Source: Gammaproteobacteria bacterium (GTDB lineage Bacteria > Pseudomonadota > Gammaproteobacteria > Pseudomonadales > Pseudohongiellaceae). From it: a DNA stretch of 64,000 bases. Positions 2,691 to 28,202 of this stretch are shown here, in pieces. A model generated the notes under the pieces. It saw only the letters and a program-made list of their open reading frames with translations, made no database searches and was not told the DNA's origin. A program made the translations under genes and the position numbers. Position 1 is the first letter of the stretch; every line of letters starts with the position of its first letter. The stretch covers positions 4,976-68,975 of the forward strand of contig JAPORB010000244.1 in assembly GCA_026710425.1 (NCBI GenBank). The letters are read 5' to 3'.

Positions 2691-4112
2691 TCAAACCTCA
2701 GTGGTGAGCGATGGGTGGTGCTGATGCCATGAGGTGGCCTGTTGATACGCATGACCAAATCGACATAAGGTTGCTTCACTCAGGCGGCGTCCCATAAATT
2801 GCATCCCGTAAGGCCAGCCCTTTTCGTTAAATCCACAGCACAAAGACAGAGTTGGTGTACCAGCAAGATCGGCCGGAATGGTGAACTGGCCCTGAAAATG
2901 TTTCACTACCTCTTTCATAACCTCAGCATTTCCATATTGCTTAGATTGCTCCACAGGGAAAACCATCCCACCTGAGGGGCAAATGACAGCGTCGACTTTT
3001 TCCAGCTCCGCCACAAACCTGCGATTAAACGCTGCGCGCCTGTCCTTGGCCTGTGAATACTCCTCCGCACTCAAGGAGCGACCCATCTCCAACACCCCAC
3101 TCAGATAATCACCATATTCATCGGCGCGTTCAGGATAATATTCGCCATGAGCCCTGTAAGCTTCATAGCCGACAAGCGGCAGCCACAAATCACGGTAATC
3201 CATGGGTCCCTCCGCTGGCATACTGACCTCCACCAGCCTTGCTCCCAAGGTCTGCAGAATTTCCAAGGCCTTTTCGATAGCAGCTACCAACCCAATGTCT
3301 GTGCCAGTAGTCAGGTAGCGCTCATCAACTCCCAGCGTCAAGCCACTCAGATTCTCTGACAAAAAACTTGGCTGGTCAGGAACCGGCTCCGATAAGGTGC
3401 TGGGATCAGAACTATCTTGACCAGCAAGCACCACAAACATGGTGGCAGCATCCTCCACAGTTCTGGCCATCGGGCCGACATGATCCAGCGACTCGGCCAA
3501 TGCCAGCAGTCCATAGCGACTCACCCTGCCCCAGGTGGGTTTCATGCCTACCACTCCGTTGGCCATGGCGGGGTAACGAATGGAACCTCCAGTGTCCGTG
3601 CCAATGCCGACATAACAAAGCCCAGCGGCTACCGCTACCCCGGTACCGGAAGAGGAGACTCCAGACCACAACCGGGAATCCCATGGATTCACTGGAATTG
3701 GAAATTCAGTATTGTAGGCAGAAAGGGCTCCCTCTGTAAGATTGAGTTTACCCAACAGCACTGCCCCCGCTGCGGCCAGCCTTGCCACTACTGTGCCATC
3801 ATACTCAGGCACAAAGCCCTTCCTGATCTTCAGGCCACCCATGGTCGGGATACCACGTGTATAGCAAAGGTCCTTGACCGCCACTGGGATGCCATGTAGC
3901 GGCCCTCGGTAAAAATCAGTCTGTATCTCCTCCTCGGACCGCTTTGCCTGTTCCAGAGCCAGTTCCGCCGTTACCGTGGCATAGCTTTTTAACTGCGGAT
4001 CAATTGCCTCAATACGACGCAGCATTGCCGTACACAACTCAATCGGTGAGAGCTGCCGAGTCCTTAGCAGTTCAGCCACGCTGGAGAGGCTTTTAAATGA
4101 CAATTCTTCCAT
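2691..4112 (-). CDS. amidase (amidase-signature family)
   Basis: 473-aa ORF with the AS block GGSSSGTGVAVAAG...GTDTGGSIRYPA and the catalytic Lys context PVAVKDL. No signal peptide. Confidence 0.85.
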   Translation of the reverse strand: MEELSFKSLSSVAELLRTRQLSPIELCTAMLRRIEAIDPQLKSYATVTAELALEQAKRSEEEIQTDFYRGPLHGIPVAVKDLCYTRGIPTMGGLKIRKGFVPEYDGTVVARLAAAGAVLLGKLNLTEGALSAYNTEFPIPVNPWDSRLWSGVSSSGTGVAVAAGLCYVGIGTDTGGSIRYPAMANGVVGMKPTWGRVSRYGLLALAESLDHVGPMARTVEDAATMFVVLAGQDSSDPSTLSEPVPDQPSFLSENLSGLTLGVDERYLTTGTDIGLVAAIEKALEILQTLGARLVEVSMPAEGPMDYRDLWLPLVGYEAYRAHGEYYPERADEYGDYLSGVLEMGRSLSAEEYSQAKDRRAAFNRRFVAELEKVDAVICPSGGMVFPVEQSKQYGNAEVMKEVVKHFQGQFTIPADLAGTPTLSLCCGFNEKGWPYGMQFMGRRLSEATLCRFGHAYQQATSWHQHHPSLTTEV

Positions 4113-6028: not shown

Positions 6029-7066
6029 CTAAAGCTTTCCCTCTGATTCCAGCCGTTCCTGTACTCGGGCCCCGCGCAGGATATTGACCATACCATAATT
6101 GCCCTCATGGCAGGCATATTCATATAGTAAGCCACCGACCTTGGTCATGGGCACGATTCCCTTGAAGGTATCGGTGTAAGTGGCCGGATCATCCACGATG
6201 AACTCATAATCCACGGTAAATTCATCCACTCGAGTAAAACGCTCGGTCAGAACCTTATCCCATGAAGTACCTGACCCACCAAAACTAAAAGACAATCCAT
6301 TGAAGTTTTTGGTGATAACAACCAGAGTATCTCCCTCCCAGTAACCCTTGGAGTCTCCTGTCCAGAGGCGGACATCATCGGAAAGTAACTCAATGACCTC
6401 GGCTGAATCATACAGCGGTACGATTCGGGCATCATGGATCATCTCTGTCAGCAACACGACCGTGTCCCTACTTTGAAAAATCTGTACATTATTGTTGTAT
6501 AAACTAGGCACGAAGGGAGGGCCGGCATTGAAACCAATAATACAGCGTTCCGACAACCCCCGATCTTCAGGACCATCAGTGCCGATTCCTCCTGCGGCAA
6601 TCCGGACCGGTCGGGATTCACCAGTGGATTCTCCGCCATAAACTCCCTGGCGTTCAATCGCTCCCTCCGCGAAGGGAGGCAGACGTCCGTTTTCCGGGTA
6701 GACAATATGGGATGTGCGGACCGTCTCACCTATGCCGGCATTTTCAACCCAGAAGTCATTGTAGGACTCATCAACTCCCTCAATATTCAGTGCCGAGTCG
6801 GACGCTTCATCAACAGCGACACGTCGTGCTTTGATTTCCTCGATCTCTCCAGTGGTCAGAAACTGTCGGTTTCCAAACTTACCAGGACGCTGCATAGGCA
6901 CATTGGATGAAAAGTTCCAAACCCCCTGTAGGTCAGGTTGGTTCCATTCCGTTCGCGGGACTGCATAATCTTCCTGTGCAAACACAGTCAACGAAAAGCA
7001 TGTGCCAGTCCACAGCAAACAACTGATTAGGGAAGTCTTTATTCTATACCAACCCGGGCTAGTCAT
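6029..7066 (-). CDS. secreted protein of unknown function
   Basis: 345-aa ORF with a signal peptide (SLISCLLWTGTCFSLTVFAQ/ED) and coding-like composition throughout. It has a distinctive C-terminal YEYACHEGNYGMVNILRGAR. I recognise no characterised family. Confidence 0.6.
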   Translation of the reverse strand: MTSPGWYRIKTSLISCLLWTGTCFSLTVFAQEDYAVPRTEWNQPDLQGVWNFSSNVPMQRPGKFGNRQFLTTGEIEEIKARRVAVDEASDSALNIEGVDESYNDFWVENAGIGETVRTSHIVYPENGRLPPFAEGAIERQGVYGGESTGESRPVRIAAGGIGTDGPEDRGLSERCIIGFNAGPPFVPSLYNNNVQIFQSRDTVVLLTEMIHDARIVPLYDSAEVIELLSDDVRLWTGDSKGYWEGDTLVVITKNFNGLSFSFGGSGTSWDKVLTERFTRVDEFTVDYEFIVDDPATYTDTFKGIVPMTKVGGLLYEYACHEGNYGMVNILRGARVQERLESEGKL

Positions 7067-7296
7067 CTTCTTCCATCTCCTGCCATGATTCTGTCTGTGT
7101 TAGTGTCGGCAATATATCGGTAACCGGCCTCAGCTTGGTTCTCAGCTGATTGCCGAACCGCTCCTGAACAGTCAGGTGACAAGCAGGTCATAATCGGACA
7201 GGCTTACATTGCCAGTCAATCCTGTCAGCCGCAAAGAACTTTAACCTTCGATTAAACTCGACACCTTGCCTGCACACCCGACCCTTCAGAGCCGAT

Positions 7297-8445
7297 TCAA
7301 CTCAGCACCTTGCGAAATACATCCACCGCAACCTGCATCTCTTCCATACTGCCCAGTGAAATACGGCAATGGGTATTGTGCAGTGGCGGAAAATCACGAC
7401 CGACGAGAACTTTGTGCTGCTGGCACAGGGATCGCAAATTGCTGGCTGGTTGCCTGAAGTTTGGGAAGATATGGTTGGTGTGTGACTCCGGCGTGTCGTA
7501 ACCAAGATCTGCCAAGGCACCCACCACAAAATCTCTGACCCGAGTGTTTTCTTCCCGCTCCCACTCCAAGTGCTCCACATCTTCAAAGGCAGTCAATGCC
7601 GCCACGGCACTCAGCATGGCGACATCACCCATACCCCAGGCATTGCGAATCTCGCTCAAAGTCTGGGGCTGGGCCAGTGCATATCCGATACGCATGCCCG
7701 CCAACGCATGTGCCTTGGAAAAAGAACGGGTCACAAAGACATTCTCAAATTCACGGGTGAGCGGGTGTCCAGTTTGCATCTTGGCCGGGTCAGCATAATC
7801 TATGTAAGCCTCGTCAAGATGAACATGGGTTTCAGGAGAGGCTGCTAGTACGGCCCGGACCGCTTTTTCAATGGCCTGCGGACTGTGCACCGTGCCAGTG
7901 GGATTATTGGGATTACAGAAGTAAACCAGTCCGGCACCCTTACTTTGGGCAACCATCGCATCTAAATCGAGTTTGGCCTCCTGGTCCAAGGGTATCTGCT
8001 TGACAGTCGCACCAATCTGACGTGCTGTTGCTTCACTGGTGGCGAACGTGGGACCGGCGGTAACCAAAGGCCTATCAGCACTGCACCAAGCGCGAGTAGA
8101 GGCTTGCAGGAGCCAGGTCGAACCGGAGGCCAGCAGCACATAATTACGGGGCACATCGAAACGCGCAGCAATGCTATTCTGCAGCTCAGGCACAAAATCC
8201 GGCGCATAGCCACGGCCTACCCGATAGTTAGTGTATTTGCGGATTGCTTCCAGCGTTTTTGGTCCTGGTCCCCTACCGCTTTCATTTTGATTGAGATGGA
8301 TCTCACCCAGGTCAAAAAGGCCTGCATGGTGATCAGAACGTGCTTGGGCGAGCACAGAGCTGCTGATGAGGGTAGAGCCACCCAGCAGACCAGCAGCCGT
8401 ACCAAAACCTGCTGACTTGACGAATCCACGGCGTGTTAGTCTCAT
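7297..8445 (-). CDS. HisC-like class I/II PLP aminotransferase with twin-arginine signal peptide
   Basis: AGGAGG lies 6 nt upstream of ATG 8445. N-terminus is MRLTRRGFVKSAGFGTAAGLLGGSTLISSSVLAQA. Fold markers are CNPNNPTG, the PLP-Lys context RSFSKAHALAGMRIGY, and a 382-aa length. Confidence 0.8.
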   Translation of the reverse strand: MRLTRRGFVKSAGFGTAAGLLGGSTLISSSVLAQARSDHHAGLFDLGEIHLNQNESGRGPGPKTLEAIRKYTNYRVGRGYAPDFVPELQNSIAARFDVPRNYVLLASGSTWLLQASTRAWCSADRPLVTAGPTFATSEATARQIGATVKQIPLDQEAKLDLDAMVAQSKGAGLVYFCNPNNPTGTVHSPQAIEKAVRAVLAASPETHVHLDEAYIDYADPAKMQTGHPLTREFENVFVTRSFSKAHALAGMRIGYALAQPQTLSEIRNAWGMGDVAMLSAVAALTAFEDVEHLEWEREENTRVRDFVVGALADLGYDTPESHTNHIFPNFRQPASNLRSLCQQHKVLVGRDFPPLHNTHCRISLGSMEEMQVAVDVFRKVLS

Positions 8446-12900: not shown

Positions 12901-13503
12901 GTGCAGACCCTAATAAACATTGCAACCATGGATCCAGCTCCTCACGCTCTGATTAGTATCTTCTTCTCGGTTCTGCTGCTCGGTGCTTCGCTTCATAAAT
13001 TTTCCGATCGTGTGCGGTTTCAGGGCATTGTGAGTTCCTACCGACTAGTCCCTGCGCCCCTGTTGGTAACAATCGCCCTGGGCATACCGGTATTGGAACT
13101 GGGCATTGGCCTGGCATGGCTGGTTGGCTTGCAGCCCAAGCTGGTGGCACTGGCAACTGCTTTATTGCTGACGACCTATACTCTGGCAATAGGTATCAAT
13201 ATCTTGCGCAACAACACCGAAATTGATTGTGGTTGCGGATTCAGTGGTACCACTGACAAGTCCACCAGCTACCAGACTTTGACGCTGGCCCTACCATTGC
13301 GCAACATACTGCTTATTGCTCTAGCATTACTGCCACTGTTGCCAACCACTCACAGACTGCTGGGCCTTGTCGATTACCTTAGCATTGCCTTGGGGAGCGT
13401 AGTAATGCTGTTGCTTTATGCGGCATTGAATCAGCTAATGGCCAACTGGCAAATCATCAATAACTGGCGAAGCGGTCGTGGCGAAGGTCCTGCTCATGGA
13501 TGA
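12901..13503 (+). CDS. mauE: methylamine utilisation protein MauE (membrane, TTQ-enzyme maturation)
   Basis: Polytopic membrane protein with the family hallmark IDCGCG and the expected position between heavy-chain and MauD genes. An alternative start is ATG 12928. Confidence 0.8.
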   Translation: MQTLINIATMDPAPHALISIFFSVLLLGASLHKFSDRVRFQGIVSSYRLVPAPLLVTIALGIPVLELGIGLAWLVGLQPKLVALATALLLTTYTLAIGINILRNNTEIDCGCGFSGTTDKSTSYQTLTLALPLRNILLIALALLPLLPTTHRLLGLVDYLSIALGSVVMLLLYAALNQLMANWQIINNWRSGRGEGPAHG

Positions 13504-14134
13504 GGCTTTAATTGTCTCGAATGTTCTGTTGTGGCTGGTGGTGGTTGTACTCGCCCTGCTGGTTTTTGCCCTCACCCGTCAAGTGGGTATATTGCATGAA
13601 CGGATTGCTCCTGCTGGAGCATTGCAACCAACCAACGGACCAAAAGTGGGAGAGTTGACGACAGCGATGGCACTGCGTGGTGTCGATGGTGGGGAAGTTA
13701 CCATTGGCGGAGAACACCAGGGAGGATTGGCCACTTTCGTACTATTCATCTCGCCAAGTTGCCCTGTTTGCAAGTCACTGGTTCCGACCGCCCGCTCTCT
13801 GGTTCATTCGGAAAGAAACCGGATGAGGCTTGTGTTTGCCAGCGATGGTGCTGAAACGCCGGAAGAGCTGAAGCAGCACGCCGATTACGTGAGTAATCTG
13901 CAAATCACGGCCTACCCTTATGTTATTTCCCAGGCCCTAGGGCTGCATTACCAGGTGAGCAAGTTGCCTTTTGCCTTGTTGATCAGCAGTGATGGGACTC
14001 TGAAAAGTAAAGGGCTGGTGAATACCAGAGAACACATGGAAAGTCTGATTGAAGCCATGGACAGTGGTATTAGCACAGTGCAGGAATTCACAGGAAAAAT
14101 ACAACCCAAAAACGCAATGGAACAAACCTCATGA
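13478..14134 (+). CDS. mauD: MauD, thioredoxin-fold disulfide oxidoreductase for light-subunit maturation
   Basis: N-terminal TM anchor followed by a thioredoxin fold with SPSCPVCK. The likely start is ATG 13496, which overlaps the mauE stop (ATGGATGA). The stop overlaps the mauA start (ATGA). Confidence 0.8.
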   Translation: MAKVLLMDEALIVSNVLLWLVVVVLALLVFALTRQVGILHERIAPAGALQPTNGPKVGELTTAMALRGVDGGEVTIGGEHQGGLATFVLFISPSCPVCKSLVPTARSLVHSERNRMRLVFASDGAETPEELKQHADYVSNLQITAYPYVISQALGLHYQVSKLPFALLISSDGTLKSKGLVNTREHMESLIEAMDSGISTVQEFTGKIQPKNAMEQTS

Positions 14135-14676
14135 TGCTTGACAAACTGGTTGACCGAACCTGCTATTGGGTGGATGAGAATGCTCGACAGACAGCACTTG
14201 CATTCGCCCGCCGACTGTCGCGCCGCAGTTTCCTATCCCGCCTTGGCTTATTCCTGGCTGGGGCCGCTTACTTTCCACTGTTGCCAGTAGCCCGTTCCTT
14301 TGCTCAGGATTCGGTACAGGAGGTCGGGGACCCACAAAGTTGTGACTACTGGCGCTACTGCGCTATGAGCGGCACCCTTTGTAGCTGCTGTGGCGGATCC
14401 TTTACTACATGTCCCCCCGGTTCCCAACCCTCTCCCATTACCTGGGTGGGAACCTGTCGCAATCCGGTAGATGGCCAAGATTACCTTATGTCCTATAACG
14501 ACTGCTGTGGCAAGGCAGTATGCGAGCGTTGTGGTTGCCACAATACCGAAGGCGACAAACCACTTTACTTCAACAGCAATAGCAACACCGTCATCTGGTG
14601 TTTTGGCACAGAAGACACCAGCTATCACTGTACCGTATCTCTAGTGTTGGGTACCGCTGACGAACAGGGGAACTGA
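14131..14676 (+). CDS. mauA: TTQ-dependent amine dehydrogenase, light (small) subunit precursor
   Basis: Long Tat-type leader (RRLSRRSFLSRLGLFLAGAAY...SFAQ). The Cys-rich mature domain CDYWRYCAMSGTLCSCCGG...TWVGTCRNP...DCCG...VIWCFG...YHCT matches methylamine and aromatic amine dehydrogenase light chains, including both TTQ Trp contexts (TWVG and IWCFG). Confidence 0.9.
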   Translation: MMLDKLVDRTCYWVDENARQTALAFARRLSRRSFLSRLGLFLAGAAYFPLLPVARSFAQDSVQEVGDPQSCDYWRYCAMSGTLCSCCGGSFTTCPPGSQPSPITWVGTCRNPVDGQDYLMSYNDCCGKAVCERCGCHNTEGDKPLYFNSNSNTVIWCFGTEDTSYHCTVSLVLGTADEQGN

Positions 14677-15107
14677 TGGCCGCCGGGAACAAAATTTTAG
14701 TTCTCGGCGGACTGGTAATGGTGTTTACTACCCTGCTCATTCCCGGTGACTTACTTTTCGCCGCCTCAGCGCGCACCAACTACTTGTTGTACTGTAGTGG
14801 CTGTCATTTGGTCAATGGTAAAGGCAATCATCCCAATGTCCCGACTTTGCATAACGAATTAGGTCGTATGATGACGGTTCCGGCAATGCGTGAGTACCTA
14901 GTCAGGATTCCAGGGGCAGCCCAGGCCCCTATCAACGATGAAGAGTTATCGGCGGTCATCAACTGGGTTCTGCAACAATGGAATGCAGATACCTTACCTG
15001 CAGGGTTCAAAAAGCTAACGCAGGCTGAAGTGACCGCCGCCCGACAGGAGATTCTGGCCGACCCTTTGCGCTACCGAGCCCAGCACTGGAAAGACCTGCC
15101 TCACTAA
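14676..15107 (+). CDS. monohaem c-type cytochrome, probable electron acceptor of the amine dehydrogenase
   Basis: 143 aa with an N-terminal signal or anchor, a single CSGCH haem-binding motif and a downstream Met-rich stretch (GRMMTVPAM). The ATG overlaps the mauA TGA by 1 nt. Confidence 0.75.
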   Translation: MAAGNKILVLGGLVMVFTTLLIPGDLLFAASARTNYLLYCSGCHLVNGKGNHPNVPTLHNELGRMMTVPAMREYLVRIPGAAQAPINDEELSAVINWVLQQWNADTLPAGFKKLTQAEVTAARQEILADPLRYRAQHWKDLPH

Positions 15108-15320
15108 CTGCCTTGATTCAATCCTTTATTTACCATTCGGTGCGTTACTTCTTTTTCTTTGCAGAGCAGTACCATTCTTGTCGATTTCTGCACGGGCCTG
15201 CAGATTTACGGCCATTGATGTTTTAGTATTTCATTTTTTTTGATCCATTTTAGATCAGTCAATTCACATACCGCATAGTCCGTAGATCCATCAAAGGTTT
15301 ATTGTTCGGGTCCAGACTGA

Positions 15321-15635
15321 TCAATTGGCATTGGTCAAGCGATACTTTTCATTCGCCCAGAGGTAAGAAGGCAGGGCAAAGGATAGGCCAATGCCGAGAT
15401 TGAGCACAATAAATATCCACGGGGCGGGACCATGATCACTCCGGCTGAACATAAACAGCCAGAACGCTACCGAGCTGATCACTAGGTCCGCAGTAAAACC
15501 GCCAACAGCACCATTGGCTAATAAGCTGCCGATGAATAACGGTGCATCTGCACCATTGCTGCTGAAAAACTCAAAGAAAAACCACCAGGGCATCACAGCC
15601 CCTATACAAGCCAAAATCAGATAGACAGTCTTCAT
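15321..15635 (-). CDS. small integral membrane protein (DUF2834-like, from memory)
   Basis: 104 aa with three to four hydrophobic helices and clean coding composition. The family assignment is only recollection. Confidence 0.5.
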   Translation of the reverse strand: MKTVYLILACIGAVMPWWFFFEFFSSNGADAPLFIGSLLANGAVGGFTADLVISSVAFWLFMFSRSDHGPAPWIFIVLNLGIGLSFALPSYLWANEKYRLTNAN

Positions 15636-20023: not shown

Positions 20024-20046
20024 TGCACTTGATGGTTTTTATGCAA

Positions 20047-20123
20047 TGGTCGGGATGAGAGGATTTGAACCTCCGACCCCTGCCTCCCGAAGACAGTGCT
20101 CTACCAGGCTGAGCTACACCCCG
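20047..20123 (-). tRNA. tRNA-Pro (anticodon CGG)
   Basis: The reverse complement reads CGGGGTGTAGCTCAGCCTGGTAGAGCACTGTCTTCGGGAGGCAGGGGTCGGAGGTTCAAATCCTCTCATCCCGACCA. It has a 7-bp acceptor stem, D-arm GCTCAGCCTGGTAGAGC, anticodon stem CTGTC/GGCAG with loop TTCGGGA (CGG), T-arm GGAGGTTCAAATCCTCT and an encoded CCA, for 77 nt in total. Confidence 0.92.
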
Positions 20124-20493
20124 ACTGTTGTTGTCAAAATGATGATGATAAATAAAATGGAATATCTGTATTCTCCAACAAGTCCATCTCAATTAGAGGG
20201 CGAGCACCGAACAGAATTGCTAAACCAGCTTTTTCACTGAGAGTGACACCGTGAGTTTACCAATAAATTTTAACTTCAGTGCCACTTGCCAACTAATGAC
20301 AAATCCTTATCGAGCTGTACTACGGATCAATTGCTATGAGAACTTGATGAAGTCCAATCAATATCCTATATTTCCTATAGTCGATGAACTGCACTTCTGT
20401 CATATCATGTCATTGAGGACCGCCATTCCTGCATTTTCTCTAAGCCGAATTATCCATGAAAATGCGGTCTCAACACCGGATTCTCTGGCAAGT

Positions 20494-22161: not shown

Positions 22162-22499
22162 TGGTCTCCCCTTTTAAAGGTTTTTCTGATTATTATCCTG
22201 TTTCCTCTCCTAATGCCCTATGGCAACCAAGCTAAGGTCAGGACCATTCAATTCGTGAATAGTATAACCTATGTGTGGGCTTCGCAGTGCTCTATATTAC
22301 GAAACAGGGACTTAAATAAATCCAAATGGTGATTCTCCAACCAACTCAGGCTGAACATGCCATCTCAACCATTGTGCCTATAATTATCACCAATCGTTAT
22401 ATTACGGTTTTTGGTTTAACAGAAGGAATGCAACGGTTCTGACCTGTCTGCTGTTCTCTGTTACCCTGTCCAGTCTCAATTATCAACAGAGGCAAACTC

Positions 22500-23120
22500 A
22501 TGAACGAACTTATAATGGAAGTCTTTAGCGACTACATCTGACCCTGGTGCTACCTCAGTACCGTGAGTATTGAAAAACTAAAGGCAAATTACCCCTTGTC
22601 TGTTCGCTGGGTTCACTTTCCCCTGCATCCGCAGACACCACCTGAGGGCCTACCCTTGGTTGAGTTGTTCGCTGGCAAGGATATTGGACCCATGCAACAA
22701 CGAATGCAATCGCTGATGGCCGAAGCCGGGTTGCCCTACAGCGAGCGCAGCCATACCTTTAACAGCAGGCTGGCCCAGGAATTGGGTAAATGGGCTGAAT
22801 CTCAGCCCAAGGGTGATGCCATCCATATTGCCCTTTTTCGTGCTTACTTTGTTGACAAAATTAACCTTCATGATATTGATTGCCTACTCACTATTGCCGA
22901 AAATATTGGTCTGAATCCTGCTGAGGCTAGGGCTGTTTTGGAACAAAGACTGTTCAAGGATTCCGTGGATGCTGACTGGCAACGGTCCCGACAACTGGGC
23001 ATCAACAGCGTACCGACATTTTATGCCAATGACCTGGTGGTTGTGGGATCTCAGCCCTATGAGGTGTTGCAGCGATTTATGGATAATTTGATTGACTCCG
23101 CCAAGGACACAAAATCATGA
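22500..23120 (+). CDS. DsbA/FrnE-family thiol oxidoreductase with an in-frame TGA (22539..22541) at the first CxxC position: candidate selenoprotein or fresh pseudogene
   Basis: ATG 22500 has AGAGG 7 nt upstream. Translation is MNELIMEVFSDYI-TGA-PWCYLSTVSIEKLK..., in the same frame as the track ORF 22563..23120. The rest is collinear with the DsbA_FrnE pattern (HFPLHP, NSRLAQE, FRAYF, LGINSVPTF, GSQPYE). The stop overlaps the next gene's ATG (ATGA). Confidence 0.6.
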
Positions 23121-23782
23121 GCCAAAAAACCGTATTAATCACTTGTGTCGACCGCTACATGGGCGTGGCGATACAACTAAAGTTTGAAGAACTGGGCTTT
23201 CGGATCATCACCGGCAACTACCCAATGCAATCCCAAAACGAGTGCGAAAAACTAATTGAGTCAGCAGGTGAGATCGATATCCTGGTAGCCAATCTGGCAG
23301 AAACACCAAGGGCCTCGCCAGTGCAGAGTATCGACAACAAGGACTGGAGTTATTTGTTCGATTGCCTGGTGCATCCACTGATGTATCTGGTGCGTGCTGT
23401 AACTCCACAAATGCTAGACCGTCAGTCGGGAAAAATTATTGCAATCACCAGTGCCGCCCCTTTGAAAGGTGTTCCCAACCATGCATCCTACTGTGCAGCC
23501 AGAAGTGCACAGAACGGATTCATAAAGGCGGTTGGCATGGAACTGGCCCGGTCCAATATACAGATCAACGCCATTGCTCAGAACTACATTAACAACGACA
23601 CTTATTATCCTGATCAGTTGCTTAATGAGGCAAAATTTGTTGACCACCTTAATCGAAACTTACCGACTCAAAAAGTCGCTGCCGCAGCGGAAACTGCCGA
23701 ATTGGCTGCTTACTTGGCCAGTGATAACTGCACGCACATGGTAGGTCAGATCCTGCCTCTGGCGGGAGGCTGGATAACCTGA
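23117..23782 (+). CDS. halohydrin dehalogenase-like SDR-fold lyase (would normally be auto-annotated as SDR oxidoreductase)
   Basis: There is no TGxxxGxG motif; instead T-CVDR-Y-M-G (T-x4-[F/Y]-x-G) is present. The catalytic pattern is S-x12-Y-x3-R (ITS-AAPLKGVPNHAS-Y-CAA-R). SGKIIAITSA, AIAQNY and C-terminal LAGGW are collinear with HheC as recalled. Confidence 0.75.
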   Translation: MSQKTVLITCVDRYMGVAIQLKFEELGFRIITGNYPMQSQNECEKLIESAGEIDILVANLAETPRASPVQSIDNKDWSYLFDCLVHPLMYLVRAVTPQMLDRQSGKIIAITSAAPLKGVPNHASYCAARSAQNGFIKAVGMELARSNIQINAIAQNYINNDTYYPDQLLNEAKFVDHLNRNLPTQKVAAAAETAELAAYLASDNCTHMVGQILPLAGGWIT

Positions 23783-23812: not shown

Positions 23813-25051
23813 TTAAGGCCCAGCCACAAGGTTGGCATCATGGAGGCCACCTATTTCGGCTTGGCTTAGCCCCAGCAGATCACTGAGTATTTCATCGGTG
23901 TGCTGGCCCAGCAAGGGTGCCGGCGCATTAGTCTCCCGCATTCTCGCTCCAAAATCCAATGGCTGATCCGGCACCACATAGCGACCAATCCCCGGCTGAT
24001 CAATGCTTTGAAATAGGGGATTCTCCACAGAACAATCGGCATCGCTCTTCACAAGTTGCTCAATAGTCTGATACGGCCCCCAACACGCACCCGCAGTGTT
24101 AAGGGCCAAACAAACTTCTTCAAAGTCTCTGGCTTCAAACCATTTGGCAAAAATGACTCTAATAGCTTCCCGAGCCTCAAACCGCTGGCTTTCCTGATCA
24201 AAATCCAGATTTAGTTCCTCCTCCAGTTTGTGGATTATCTGTTCTGACTGCGTTACCTTGACCAGTGCCTGCCATTGATTGGGACTTACACCTACCACCA
24301 TCACACGGCCACCGTCCCGGCACTGAAAATCATGACCGAAGGTACCAAACACATGATTACCCATCGGCTTTCTTCCCTGTTGATTGATCTGGACTTCAGC
24401 AAGGTAACCGAGATGTCCCAGTGTGGCCATAGCCACATCGGCCAATGCCAATCGGATAAACTGTCCTTCTCCACTCAGGCGGCGATGTCGCTCAGCAGCC
24501 AGTAGCCCAAGGGCGATTTGCTGACCTGCGATCACATCCCAGGCAGGGAAAGGATTGTTGATTGGCTTGACTCCGTCGCCACTCAGAAATGGCAGACCGA
24601 CTCGACTGTTTACCGTGTAATCCAGTGCCGTACCACCGTGGCGGTCACCAGTCAGATTCAGGTAAATTAAATCTTCCCGCTTTCTGCGCAGGACCTCATC
24701 AGCAAGCCAGCCCCGCGCCGGAAAGTTGGTCAGAAAGATACCGGCATTATCACCTGTGGCGGTTATTAGATCAGTCAGCAATTCCCGCCCCCGGGGCTGT
24801 CGAAAATCAACAGCAATGGACCGCTTGCCCTTGTTCAGACAGTGCCAATACAGACTTTTACCTTCGGTATTGACAGGCCAGCGATGATAGTCGATACCAC
24901 CACCAATTTGATCGAAGCGAATGACATCAGCACCAAGTTGCGCCAGTGTCATGCCACCGGAAGGTGCAGCGATAAAGGCACTGCCTTCCATAATGCGTAA
25001 GCCTTCTAGCAGATTTTGCATAAGGATTATGGGAGTCTCGACATACAGCAA
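23813..25051 (-). CDS. family III CoA-transferase, 2-methylfumaryl-CoA isomerase (Mct)-like
   Basis: LEGLRIMEGSAFIAAPSGGMTLAQLGADVIRFD, GKRSIAVD, FLTNFPARGWL and LLAAERHRRLSGEGQ are collinear with the CaiB/BaiF family, and closely with Mct-type members as recalled. The likely start is ATG 25021 (MQNLLEGL...). Confidence 0.85.
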   Translation of the reverse strand: MLYVETPIILMQNLLEGLRIMEGSAFIAAPSGGMTLAQLGADVIRFDQIGGGIDYHRWPVNTEGKSLYWHCLNKGKRSIAVDFRQPRGRELLTDLITATGDNAGIFLTNFPARGWLADEVLRRKREDLIYLNLTGDRHGGTALDYTVNSRVGLPFLSGDGVKPINNPFPAWDVIAGQQIALGLLAAERHRRLSGEGQFIRLALADVAMATLGHLGYLAEVQINQQGRKPMGNHVFGTFGHDFQCRDGGRVMVVGVSPNQWQALVKVTQSEQIIHKLEEELNLDFDQESQRFEAREAIRVIFAKWFEARDFEEVCLALNTAGACWGPYQTIEQLVKSDADCSVENPLFQSIDQPGIGRYVVPDQPLDFGARMRETNAPAPLLGQHTDEILSDLLGLSQAEIGGLHDANLVAGP

Positions 25052-25757
25052 AATGATTGATGAGAATAGTCTGGCATTGTTTAATTCACTTGTAAGGAAA
25101 AGTCACATCAAGCAACTCTTTTCAGATTTGGCATTAATGCTTATTAGGCATCGTTGTTGCCGAGCAAAGCTGATGTAATCAGTCATTCCATATTGAGCAT
25201 TGGATATGACAGGAGTCATTAACCAAATGCAACAAAATACAATTGCAAATTTGTGGCCAATTCTCGAATACAATCTATCTTTATATTTTACCAATCTGTT
25301 GCATGGCAATGCTAAAAATTATTGTTGATCAGCTACAATAAACTAACTATCTATTCATAAGTTAGTACTTAATCTCAAATTAAAGCTATTTATTAGGTCA
25401 GGTATACAAAACTTGCTTTTTTAAACAGATTCTATTTTCATGCATACAAAATACAAATATTTATATATATAAATATAAGATCTCACATATAAACTTATCA
25501 TTTACTTATCAAATTAAGCAAGCTGGCAACGATTTAGTCAGATTTGAAATAAAGAGAAAAGGTCGCTTGACAAATGCTGTGGAGATATCTTGATCGGCAA
25601 CTTGAACATACGCCACTCACCTTTTGCGGATCTTTCTCCGAGGATATTTGCTTGTATCTCTGCAACTACTGAAGCCCTTTGTGGCAACTAGAACTCAGTC
25701 CATAACGGGTTATCGGTCCTTGGTTAGGTAGTGGGAGTGCTCCCTTATAAGCTGAAA

Positions 25758-28202
25758 TCATCTTGACGATAATGCAAAGCCCGCACTGTTGTGTTGTTCC
25801 ATCATCTCCTTGGCAATGACCCTGATAGCCAAGACCTCCTCTGTACCCTCAAAAATCGAAAGCACCCTCGCATCAACAAAATACCGACTCACCGCCGTTT
25901 CTTCCGCATAGCCCATTCCACCATGTAGTTGCATGGCTTCACGGGTTACCCACTCAGCAGCCCGGCAGGCAAACAGCTTCACCAGACTGGCCTCCATCTG
26001 CCCCTTACCCGCATCCATTAATCTGGCCACGGCATAGCTGAACTGGCGACAGGCAGTAATCGTGGCTAGCATTCGCGACAGTTTGAGTCGGGTCAGCTGG
26101 TAGTCTCCCAATGTATGGTTGAAAACCCTCCGCTGGGCGGTGTACTGCAAGGCCTCATCAAAAGCGGCTTGCATAAGCCCGGTGGCACGGGCTGCGGTTT
26201 GCAGTCTGCCACCAGCAAAGCCCGCCATGGTGTAGTAAAAACCCTTGCCCTGACCCTCAGCCCCGCCAAGTAAGCCCTCGGTCGGCACAAAATAGTCATC
26301 AAAAAATAGGGTATAGGAATGCATACCGCGATAACCAAGGGTTGCAATCGCTTTACCGCTAAATACACCTCCCTGAGGTTGACTATGGCTGAACTCATGT
26401 CCCTTAAAAGTCGGTTTTTCCACCAGAAACAGGCTCAGACCCCGATGCCCATTGGGATCCTGACCGGTACGGGCCAGCACTAAGACCAATTCCGAACGGC
26501 CTGCAAAGGTACACCAGGTTTTGCTGCCATTGAGCAACCAACCACCCTCACAGGCACTGGCACGCAAGGATACTGCTGCAACATCAGAACCGGTATCCGG
26601 TTCGGTGATGGAAATCGCACACAGTTTTTCACCACTGGCCAGCATAGGCAACCAGGTTTGTTGTTGCTCTTGTGTACCGCCAGCCAGCAGAGCACGAGCA
26701 GCTATTTCAGGCCTGGTAATCAGACTGCCCGCCGCACCAAGGGAACCGCGTGAAAGCTCCTCGGTCACAATAATCATGCTCATGCTGTCGGGCTTTTCAT
26801 CCGGCTGCAAACCACCAAATCGCTCGGGAATACAGGTCCCAAAGCATCCCAGATTAGCAGCAGTTTCAATTAGGGTGTCGGGTACATCCTGGTCCTGTCG
26901 ATGAATTGCTTCTGCCAATGGTGCCACATCAGCCTCGGCAAAGCGCTGGAAGTTACTGCGCACTTGCTCATAGCTTTCATCCAAGCCTGATTCAAGACAA
27001 GTGATGCCAGCCTCAATACAGCGTGTAGCCAGCTGCTCAAATCCATCGGCTGACTTCAGCAAGTCATTCAAATCATCATCAGCCAAGAGTGCCCGAACCT
27101 CTTGCGAATCCAAACCAAGCATCGCACCTTCAGTTACAAAACTGCTAAGGATTGATTTGATAGTCTCAACACAGAATCCGAGGGCGCAGGGAGCAAGCAG
27201 CGGAGCCTGTGGAGATGTCTTGGCATGCTCCAACAGAACTTGCGCTGCTTTCAGCTCTGCCGAGACGACAGCAAGGGTGTAGCAGCGACTTTGTTGTTGG
27301 TCAAATAGGTTTTCATCCAGTTTGCCTTTGCGGTACATATCCTCTTTGGCTGCATGCACGGCAGTTTGCAGCTGGTGCGATACCTTCTCCTCCAAGACAT
27401 AACTTGCCCGGTCCAGTTGTATCCGCTCTGGGGACCTGTGAGCACTTGGTAAATCATGATGAGTCTTCTTCTTTAGTGTCGTTGGTCTATGGTGAGGAGC
27501 ATTAAACCCGCTGTAAGGTACATCTTTCGATATTTCAGGATACCAAGGCTTGCCCCAATCCTGATCTGGATTGCTCATCATGACACTAACAAAGACTGGC
27601 ACCAAAGAATCAAGAATTTTAGTTCCATCACAAACTTGATTTCGATTCCAGTTACTATCCCATGTTGCTCCACCATGGACTAACTGATTTCTCAGTACAT
27701 TTAATCTTCTGAAAATCTTTATTAATGCTTTCTCTATGTTGTGCCCTTTCATCATTTTGTGAAAATAAACATTGTCATTTTCAAAATGAGATTCCCAACT
27801 TTTATAACTATTTAGTCCGTGTTGAGAATCCCAAAACCGCCTGAATATAAATCGATTTCCCATTAAATCTTGTATAAGGATAGAGAATTTTTTCAGATAA
27901 CCTTTAATTATATTTTGTGCATCCCTAGTCACAATATCCGTTAAAAATGATTCTCGGATTTTAAATTCTTTTCCTCTCTCACAATTAGTATCTGCATGAA
28001 GAGCATCAAAAGCTATCCATAGAAAAATATATTTTCCATCACTATCATCTGTATCTTTGGCGCGCTTAATCCAACTCAAAGCACGTCTAATGCGATGACT
28101 GAAGTCCTGTTTGAAAGCATGTTTGTTCTCATCATACTTCTTTTTTAGCTCGTCATAGCTCGGTGGTTTTTCCATGGAATATTTACCTCGAATATATTTC
28201 AT
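25758..28202 (-). CDS. long acyl-CoA dehydrogenase (methylsuccinyl-CoA dehydrogenase-like architecture) preceded in the same ORF by a low-GC HEPN-like module
   Basis: The C-terminal ~555 aa form an ACAD (TEPDTGSDVAA, WCTFAG, GGRLQTAARA, IFEGTEEV) with a helical N-terminal extension. Residues 1 to ~230 are a different, AT-rich module containing LRNQLVHGG (Rx4H). The best start is ATG 28178, with GAGGT 10 nt upstream. An internal alternative is ATG 27338, which has a poorly spaced AGAGG. Confidence 0.7.
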   Translation of the reverse strand: MKYIRGKYSMEKPPSYDELKKKYDENKHAFKQDFSHRIRRALSWIKRAKDTDDSDGKYIFLWIAFDALHADTNCERGKEFKIRESFLTDIVTRDAQNIIKGYLKKFSILIQDLMGNRFIFRRFWDSQHGLNSYKSWESHFENDNVYFHKMMKGHNIEKALIKIFRRLNVLRNQLVHGGATWDSNWNRNQVCDGTKILDSLVPVFVSVMMSNPDQDWGKPWYPEISKDVPYSGFNAPHHRPTTLKKKTHHDLPSAHRSPERIQLDRASYVLEEKVSHQLQTAVHAAKEDMYRKGKLDENLFDQQQSRCYTLAVVSAELKAAQVLLEHAKTSPQAPLLAPCALGFCVETIKSILSSFVTEGAMLGLDSQEVRALLADDDLNDLLKSADGFEQLATRCIEAGITCLESGLDESYEQVRSNFQRFAEADVAPLAEAIHRQDQDVPDTLIETAANLGCFGTCIPERFGGLQPDEKPDSMSMIIVTEELSRGSLGAAGSLITRPEIAARALLAGGTQEQQQTWLPMLASGEKLCAISITEPDTGSDVAAVSLRASACEGGWLLNGSKTWCTFAGRSELVLVLARTGQDPNGHRGLSLFLVEKPTFKGHEFSHSQPQGGVFSGKAIATLGYRGMHSYTLFFDDYFVPTEGLLGGAEGQGKGFYYTMAGFAGGRLQTAARATGLMQAAFDEALQYTAQRRVFNHTLGDYQLTRLKLSRMLATITACRQFSYAVARLMDAGKGQMEASLVKLFACRAAEWVTREAMQLHGGMGYAEETAVSRYFVDARVLSIFEGTEEVLAIRVIAKEMMEQHNSAGFALSSR

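Follow-up and report, generated by a model that had tools for sequence, protein, structure and literature searches.

The question raised by this locus is whether the in-frame TGA at positions 22539 to 22541 of the window (the whole 64-kb stretch of DNA that was analysed) ends a short reading frame or is read as selenocysteine in the middle of an active site. From ATG 22500 the frame reads MNELIMEVFSDYI, then the TGA, then PWCYLSTVSIEKLK…, and it continues with no shift through the stop codon TGA at 23118 to 23120. The coding sequence from 22500 to 23120 therefore holds 206 codons, of which the in-frame TGA is codon 14. Judged from the sequence comparisons set out below, 22500 to 23120 very probably encodes a 206-residue cytoplasmic thiol-disulfide oxidoreductase of the DsbA/FrnE type, with the active site Sec14-Pro-Trp-Cys17 and with the UGA recoded. 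The features of the gene are as follows.

22500 to 23120, plus strand: full coding sequence of the predicted DsbA/FrnE-like selenoprotein (translation; Pfam DSBA match; homology to AACY01028493).
22488 to 22492, plus strand: AGAGG, a Shine-Dalgarno-like motif 7 nt 5' of ATG 22500 (read from the sequence).
22539 to 22541, plus strand: UGA predicted to be read as selenocysteine, at the first, nucleophilic position of the U-P-W-C redox motif (codon conservation; FrnE alignment).
22548 to 22550, plus strand: TGC, which encodes the second (resolving) residue of UxxC, Cys17 (Cys invariant across all loci).
22563 to 22565, plus strand: GTG, the apparently false start chosen by ORF callers, within the SECIS loop (ORF list).

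The mechanical ORF list gave the gene as 22563 to 23120, a protein of 185 aa starting from the GTG. The preliminary description of this locus had reported this call, together with the TGA between intact coding stretches from ATG 22500 and the AGAGG 7 nt upstream of that ATG, and all three observations were confirmed from the sequence and its translation. When the U was read as C, the full-length protein matched the Pfam DSBA profile PF01323 with an E value of 9e-30 and 104 bits (cut-off 25.6) over residues 7 to 193, and the match spanned profile positions 3 to 189 of 191. Since the match starts from residue 7, the 21 residues 5' of the ORF-list start are part of the domain. The only Cys residues in the protein are at positions 17 and 128, and the C-terminus (…DNLIDSAKDTKS) is without Cys. 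The translated protein has no signal peptide and no hydrophobic N-terminal leader, because its active site is located at residue 14.

We then considered the base call itself. The gene is identical (0 mismatches in 621 nt) in scaffold_419 of ENA ERZ23497148 and in Logan SRR10996935, two assemblies possibly derived from one and the same sample. L081 and L082, two further assemblies that stem from other samples, retain the TGA as well. The presence of the TGA in the identical copies and in the other-sample assemblies makes a base-calling error unlikely.

To read the codon directly in related organisms, we fetched the DNA of the best 80 species-level genomes. The codon at the Sec column was TGA in 77 of these 80 closest genomes and TGC or TGT in the other three (L031, L050, and L052). 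Carriers of the TGA ranged over the Gamma-, Alpha-, and Betaproteobacteria, Terriglobia, Myxococcota, and SAR324, and included MAGs of Pseudohongiellaceae, OM182, and Pseudomonadales whose proteins were 55 to 69% identical to that of the window. The flanks of the codon (..DY[VI]-U-PWCYLST..) were kept in the 77 loci, and the second Cys of the motif (Cys17) was invariant in all loci. On the 5' side of the TGA, the amino acids were kept while the codons varied, as for Phe (TTC in 57 genes, TTT in 20) and Asp (GAC in 57, GAT in 20). An in-frame ATG was located 13 to 19 codons 5' of the TGA in 72 of 78 genes, and a Shine-Dalgarno-like motif preceded the upstream ATG in 44 of 72 relatives.

The protein search returned 6749 homologues. 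Among the best 120 of these 6749 matches, about 109 covered 81 to 90% of the query and started at (M/V)SIEKLK, which is the same truncation as in the window. Eight proteins among the best 120 had Cys at the Sec column, and the Cys-type homologues were continuous across the region. Two full-length calls among the best 120 had Trp at that column (DYVWPWCYL), the simplest explanation being that a gene caller translated the TGA as Trp. A reassigned genetic code was ruled out: TGA serves as the stop codon in 23 of the 77 Sec-type genes, the window gene included, and is therefore still a stop codon in these organisms.

Several individual relatives deserve a separate description. The full-length homologue P0079 has Arg at the Sec/Cys position (EIFTDYVRPWCYL), and an Arg codon (CGA) is one substitution from TGA; P0079 may have lost its activity, or the Arg may stem from a sequencing error or a mis-call. 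The residue within the G-x-QPY motif (VVG-S-QPY) is Ser in the window protein, and the relatives have Ala (40), Cys (33), or Ser (2); given this mixture, the Ser was rejected as the meaningful loss of a third Cys. The MAG PBHS01 carries two near-identical Sec-type copies with the same neighbors, on contigs 61 (L012) and 40 (L015), which represent either a duplication or two strains in one bin. In an Alphaproteobacteria MAG (L062, CAVSNJ010000025.1), the first 74 nt of the gene are present three times in direct orientation between positions 3658 and 6062. Each 74-nt unit begins with the start codon, includes the TGA, and ends in the SECIS loop, with spacings of 1245 and 1086 nt. The array is located just 3' of a tRNA-Leu (3494 to 3580), the full gene follows the third copy only, and a zinc-ribbon-like protein is encoded in each of the two intervening segments by a gene of about 250 codons. 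Small elements that inserted at the SECIS, with a duplication of the 5' end of the gene each time, would account for the array, as would an assembly artefact. Among the carriers, the Mb-scale contigs that were checked for a cultured organism were long-read metagenome assemblies and not isolates.

The region 3' of the TGA was then analysed for an RNA element that could direct recoding. The following features were found.

22555 to 22573, plus strand: SECIS-type hairpin (RNAalifold consensus, compensatory pairs, synonymous-site trough).
22549 to 22551, plus strand: 5' half of a putative weak 3-bp lower stem (RNAalifold pairs 11-40, 12-39, and 13-38).
22576 to 22578, plus strand: 3' half of the putative weak lower stem (RNAalifold, same pairs).

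In the hairpin, the strand 22555 to 22561 (UCAGUAC) pairs with 22567 to 22573 (GUAUUGA) around an apical loop at 22562 to 22566 (CGUGA), so that seven contiguous base pairs carry a 5-nt loop and the helix begins 13 nt past the UGA. This structure was chosen by RNAalifold from the 77 sequences (alignment columns 17-23 and 29-35). In that alignment, 100% of the 539 cells pair and two pairs are compensatory (four sequences have C-G in place of U-A, and one has U-A in place of A-U), and none of 500 shuffles reached the observed values. When the alignment was widened to include all seven DsbA-like sequences printed in a 2005 supplement (one ill-fitting fragment among them), 99% of the cells paired, four of the seven pairs were compensatory (11 cells), and none of 500 shuffles matched the observed value on any of five measures; these covariation counts come largely from few independent events. 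In AACY01178397 and AACY01078317, the fold of lowest free energy is this hairpin, in which G-C pairs replace U-A and A-U.

The loop nucleotide G25 (G22563 of the window) was invariant in 84 of 84 sequences, and the loop followed the pattern C-G-K-G-M. The bSECISearch model describes a bacterial SECIS as a hairpin within the ORF with its apical loop about 16 to 37 nt after the UGA and a G among the first two loop bases. In the hairpin 22555 to 22573, 20 nt separate the UGA from the loop and a G is found within the first two bases of the loop, in agreement with that model in both loop distance and early G. In the TGA-type genes the string that follows the TGA is nearly frozen (TGA CCN TGG TGY TAY CTC AGT ACC GKG MGT ATT GAA). 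The codon entropy was 0 to 0.6 bit at codons +5 to +10, compared with 1.7 to 2.2 for Leu, Thr, and Pro codons elsewhere, and this trough in synonymous variation coincides with the hairpin. The three Cys-type genes diverge across the frozen stretch.

The preliminary description had proposed two other short hairpins as candidates. Both exist in the sequence, but neither is the covarying one; it is the third hairpin, at 22555 to 22573, that covaries. In the candidate at 22551 to 22569 (-2.3 kcal/mol), pair 17-28 is broken in 44 of the 77 relatives and 85.5% of the cells pair, so that it was rejected as the SECIS. The candidate at 22545 to 22563 (-7.4 kcal/mol) was 99.3% paired, yet it showed no compensatory changes and did not rise above shuffles, and it too was dropped. 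This candidate starts at nt 7 counted from the U of the UGA, and a ribosome decoding the UGA would melt a hairpin that starts there, within the mRNA channel. By itself the hairpin 22555 to 22573 has a folding energy of -5.8 kcal/mol, against -7.4 kcal/mol for the slightly more stable competitor at 22545 to 22563. When the first 12 to 16 nt were removed, 22555 to 22573 became the minimum-free-energy fold, and from what is generally known of the mRNA channel such removal would mimic a ribosome positioned on the UGA. The single-sequence fold of 22539 to 22600 was no better than shuffles (z -0.76), and the hairpin region had no Rfam match at the gathering threshold or at E ≤ 10. Within the lower stem, pair 12-39 joins the third base of the Cys17 codon (TGY) to the third base of a Lys codon (AAR) and is partly covarying (UA in 34 sequences, UG in 17, CG in 16, unpaired in 10); in the window it is C-A, unpaired. 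The lower stem may be a weak extension of the SECIS. The alignment of orthologues that the preliminary description had called for thus returned both TGA at the column in 77 of 80 genomes and a covarying hairpin 3' of it.

We next looked for the machinery of selenocysteine decoding. ARAGORN detected no tRNA-Sec in the 64-kb window, and tblastn with E. coli queries detected no SelA, SelB, or SelD in the window or in any related locus. When the window and 81 loci were taken together, a tRNA-SeC was found by ARAGORN in one, L054, at 5.8 kb from its copy of the gene. A scan of the 64-kb window revealed no other in-frame-TGA genes with redox motifs. We infer that the sel genes are present elsewhere in the source genome.

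It could be argued that the UGA is read through without selenocysteine, by near-cognate insertion of Trp or Cys or by programmed stop suppression aided by the hairpin. Among the alternatives this one survives best, but we consider it quite improbable. While the genes of the 64-kb window include no Sec machinery and downstream hairpins can stimulate read-through of that kind as well, the recoding takes place at the position of the catalytic Cys in a thiol oxidoreductase, with Cys as the sole alternative residue in homologues, and Trp at position 14 would inactivate the enzyme. The small apical loop with its conserved G is typical of a bacterial SECIS, and in L054 a tRNA-SeC is found near the gene. 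A Sec/Cys pair is the defining hallmark of selenoproteins (PMC1088965).

An even smaller probability is given to the proposal that the true product is the 185-aa protein from GTG 22563, or one from a later start, without a redox motif, in which case 22500 to 22541 would be a leader ORF and the hairpin would be regulatory. In such a product the DSBA domain, whose profile match begins at residue 7, would be missing strand β1 and its entire CxxC motif. Public databases annotate precisely that protein, and the GTG is kept in many relatives; however, the GTG lies inside the hairpin loop and is GGG or GTT in many other relatives, and it is therefore not a conserved start. Furthermore, the upstream 13 codons and the PWCYLST that follows are conserved as protein and align with FrnE, and the Cys-type homologues run without interruption through the region.

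The genomic neighborhood was also investigated. Immediately downstream is the following gene.

23117 to 23782, plus strand: short-chain dehydrogenase/reductase (SDR) gene (NCBIfam SDR matches; sequence).

The ATG of the SDR gene overlaps the TGA stop of the selenoprotein gene (ATGA), so that the two genes are probably co-transcribed, and the SDR gene is immediately 3' in 25 related loci. The selenoprotein gene and the SDR gene are located between the gene of a 555-residue TPR protein and the gene of a family-III CoA-transferase. This gene order is conserved in about 25 loci of the Pseudohongiellaceae/OM182 type, in which the neighbors are 65 to 80% identical, and the conserved synteny points to vertical inheritance of the TGA-bearing gene. 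From these neighbors, the window probably comes from a marine gammaproteobacterium of the Pseudohongiellaceae/OM182 kind.

The neighborhood itself has some unusual members. The CoA-transferase (23813 to 25051, minus strand) matched the 2-methylfumaryl-CoA isomerase model TIGR04253 with an E value of 1.6e-163 and 544 bits, below the cut-off of 725. The acyl-CoA dehydrogenase (25758 to 28202, minus strand) is unusually long at 814 residues; the dehydrogenase domain occupies only residues ~407 to 803, and the N-terminal ~400 residues had no NCBIfam match. L081 represents a near-identical strain, with 3 mismatches in the selenoprotein gene. Beside a tRNA-Pro it carries an extra 403-residue gene (6339 to 7550, corresponding to 20024 to 20493 of the window), and between the CoA-transferase and acyl-CoA dehydrogenase genes it carries a 774-residue DruA (Druantia-type defence) gene (13079 to 15403, corresponding to 25052 to 25757 of the window). 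Since both genes are absent from the window, they represent strain-variable islands flanking the selenoprotein operon.

The preliminary description had left open a choice between a selenoprotein and a very recent nonsense mutation, and the second reading, in which a TGC or TGT Cys codon became TGA and left a pseudogene that is dead or yields a 13-residue peptide, has next to no probability, since, although TGA is one substitution from TGC and TGT and no Sec machinery was seen in the 64-kb window, the conserved TGA and the conserved upstream codons exclude it: several phyla are represented among the 77 of 80 related genomes that share this TGA (the rest have Cys), purifying selection acts on both sides of the TGA, the hairpin covaries, relatives keep both the synteny and the SDR gene that overlaps the 3' end, and published orthologues share the TGA.

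The selenoprotein reading suggests how the gene could be expressed and how its product could work. The UGA at 22539 to 22541 would be recoded to selenocysteine. The hairpin, 13 nt past the UGA, would lie immediately beyond the edge of a ribosome that has the UGA in its A site, and it would there recruit SelB·GTP·Sec-tRNASec in the manner of the E. coli fdhF SECIS. The first residue of UxxC, as a selenolate, would then attack substrate disulfides or oxidised thiols and form a selenenylsulfide with Cys17, such that the nucleophilic attack would fall to Sec14 and the resolving step to Cys17. The chemistry of Sec14 and Cys17 is that described in the thioredoxin-fold literature, and SelB binding, selenium incorporation, and redox chemistry are all proposed here by analogy. 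As the protein has no signal peptide and only Cys17 and Cys128, we read it as a cytoplasmic FrnE-like reductase/isomerase; to judge from its sequence, it is probably such an enzyme rather than a periplasmic oxidant.

A broader proposal is possible but rather doubtful: that the PWCYLST(V/G)(S/R)IEKLK subfamily is almost obligately selenium-dependent and has spread horizontally with its recoding element, perhaps as the dedicated selenoenzyme of an uncharacterised metabolic step (e.g., one that is kappa-GST/HCCA-isomerase-like) rather than as a general disulfide isomerase. The TGA in 77 of the 80 nearest species would fit a near-obligate dependence. The gene is found with a near-identical SECIS in at least six bacterial lineages, most of them known from MAGs only and marine gammaproteobacterial groups among them, as would be expected if gene and recoding element had spread horizontally together. 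The gammaproteobacterial operon with the SDR gene, beside the CoA-transferase and acyl-CoA dehydrogenase genes, is compatible with a dedicated selenoenzyme.

The main value of the analysis is the correction of a systematic mis-annotation. Almost all public copies of the gene are entries of 180 to 190 residues, within a full range of 154 to 192, lack the active site, and are named 'DsbA family protein' or 'hypothetical protein', and the called start varies with the gene caller (154, 174, and 185 residues for one gene). In NCBIfam release 20, no model reached its cut-off for the window protein. The 19-nt hairpin together with the TGA-CCN-TGG-TGY signature provides a simple rule by which hundreds of entries could be corrected, and the two also make it possible to spot the Sec trait in MAGs from Pseudohongiellaceae/OM182 and from many Alphaproteobacteria. 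The locus adds one more case of selenium use in uncultured bacteria, and no new principle.

The gene and its element can be compared with four known systems. Periplasmic DsbA of E. coli (CPHC) shares with the window protein the thioredoxin fold, the inserted helical domain, and PF01323. In contrast to DsbA, the window protein has no signal peptide and has the motif UPWC instead of CPHC.

The SECIS of E. coli fdhF and the window hairpin are both located in the coding region just 3' of the UGA, and in each the small apical loop contains a GU whose G is essential or invariant. In the extracted fdhF element, the helix starts from nt 15 and the loop GGUC occupies nt 22 to 25, while in the window the helix starts from nt 17 and the loop CGUGA occupies nt 24 to 28. 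The window element is thus 2 nt farther from the UGA; it also has no bulged U and at most a weak lower stem. The bulged U is a feature of the E. coli type and is not required by the general bacterial SECIS model.

The closest solved structure is that of FrnE from Deinococcus radiodurans (PDB 5cnw and 5cp1), which matched query residues 4 to 190 with an E value of 1e-20. FrnE is a cytoplasmic disulfide isomerase/reductase of the DsbA fold, and its segment sdiaCPWCyi aligns with sdyiUPWCyl of the window protein, so that FrnE has Cys where the window protein has Sec. The placement of the TGA at the first Cys of a CxxC motif, as claimed in the preliminary description, is borne out by its alignment with the first Cys of the FrnE CPWC. 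The two proteins also have the cis-Pro loop G-(I/V)-x-x-V-P in common, and both are without a signal peptide. FrnE has a C-terminal extension with a second Cys pair. That pair is absent from the window protein, which ends at residue 206; the window protein therefore resembles FrnE in its fold and motif without being an FrnE orthologue in the strict sense.

The closest likeness is to a family of selenoproteins that is already known. Zhang, Fomenko, and Gladyshev described in 2005, from Sargasso Sea sequences, a selenoprotein family termed 'DsbA-like protein' (COG2761, UxxC), with nine sequences, each with a predicted SECIS (PMC1088965). Sequenced genomes later proved to contain the family as well (PMC1794560), and it appears in a 2026 review under the entry 'DsbA-like protein form 1, PF01323, UxxC' (PMC13188914). 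The statement in the preliminary description that Sec-containing DsbA-like families had been reported from marine metagenomes was therefore correct, and the window gene is an orthologue. The supplement of the 2005 paper prints AACY01028493 as MKKYNLKVFIDYIuPWCYLSTVSIEKLK… (PMC1088965), and the window protein is 55% identical to it in a full-length match over 194 aa (E value of 4e-85). The family has the same Pfam domain and the same U-P-W-C near the N-terminus as the window protein. The nucleotide string after the UGA in AACY01028493, AACY01601659, and AACY01473751 is nearly identical to that of the window, and in the divergent AACY01178397, AACY01078317, and AACY01543637 the hairpin is retained without a shift in register. 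Since the family was published in 2005, the present result is an annotation fix and not a discovery. The window gene is an ordinary member of the published 'DsbA-like protein' selenoprotein family, COG2761, with UxxC, and nothing essential differs in the window copy.
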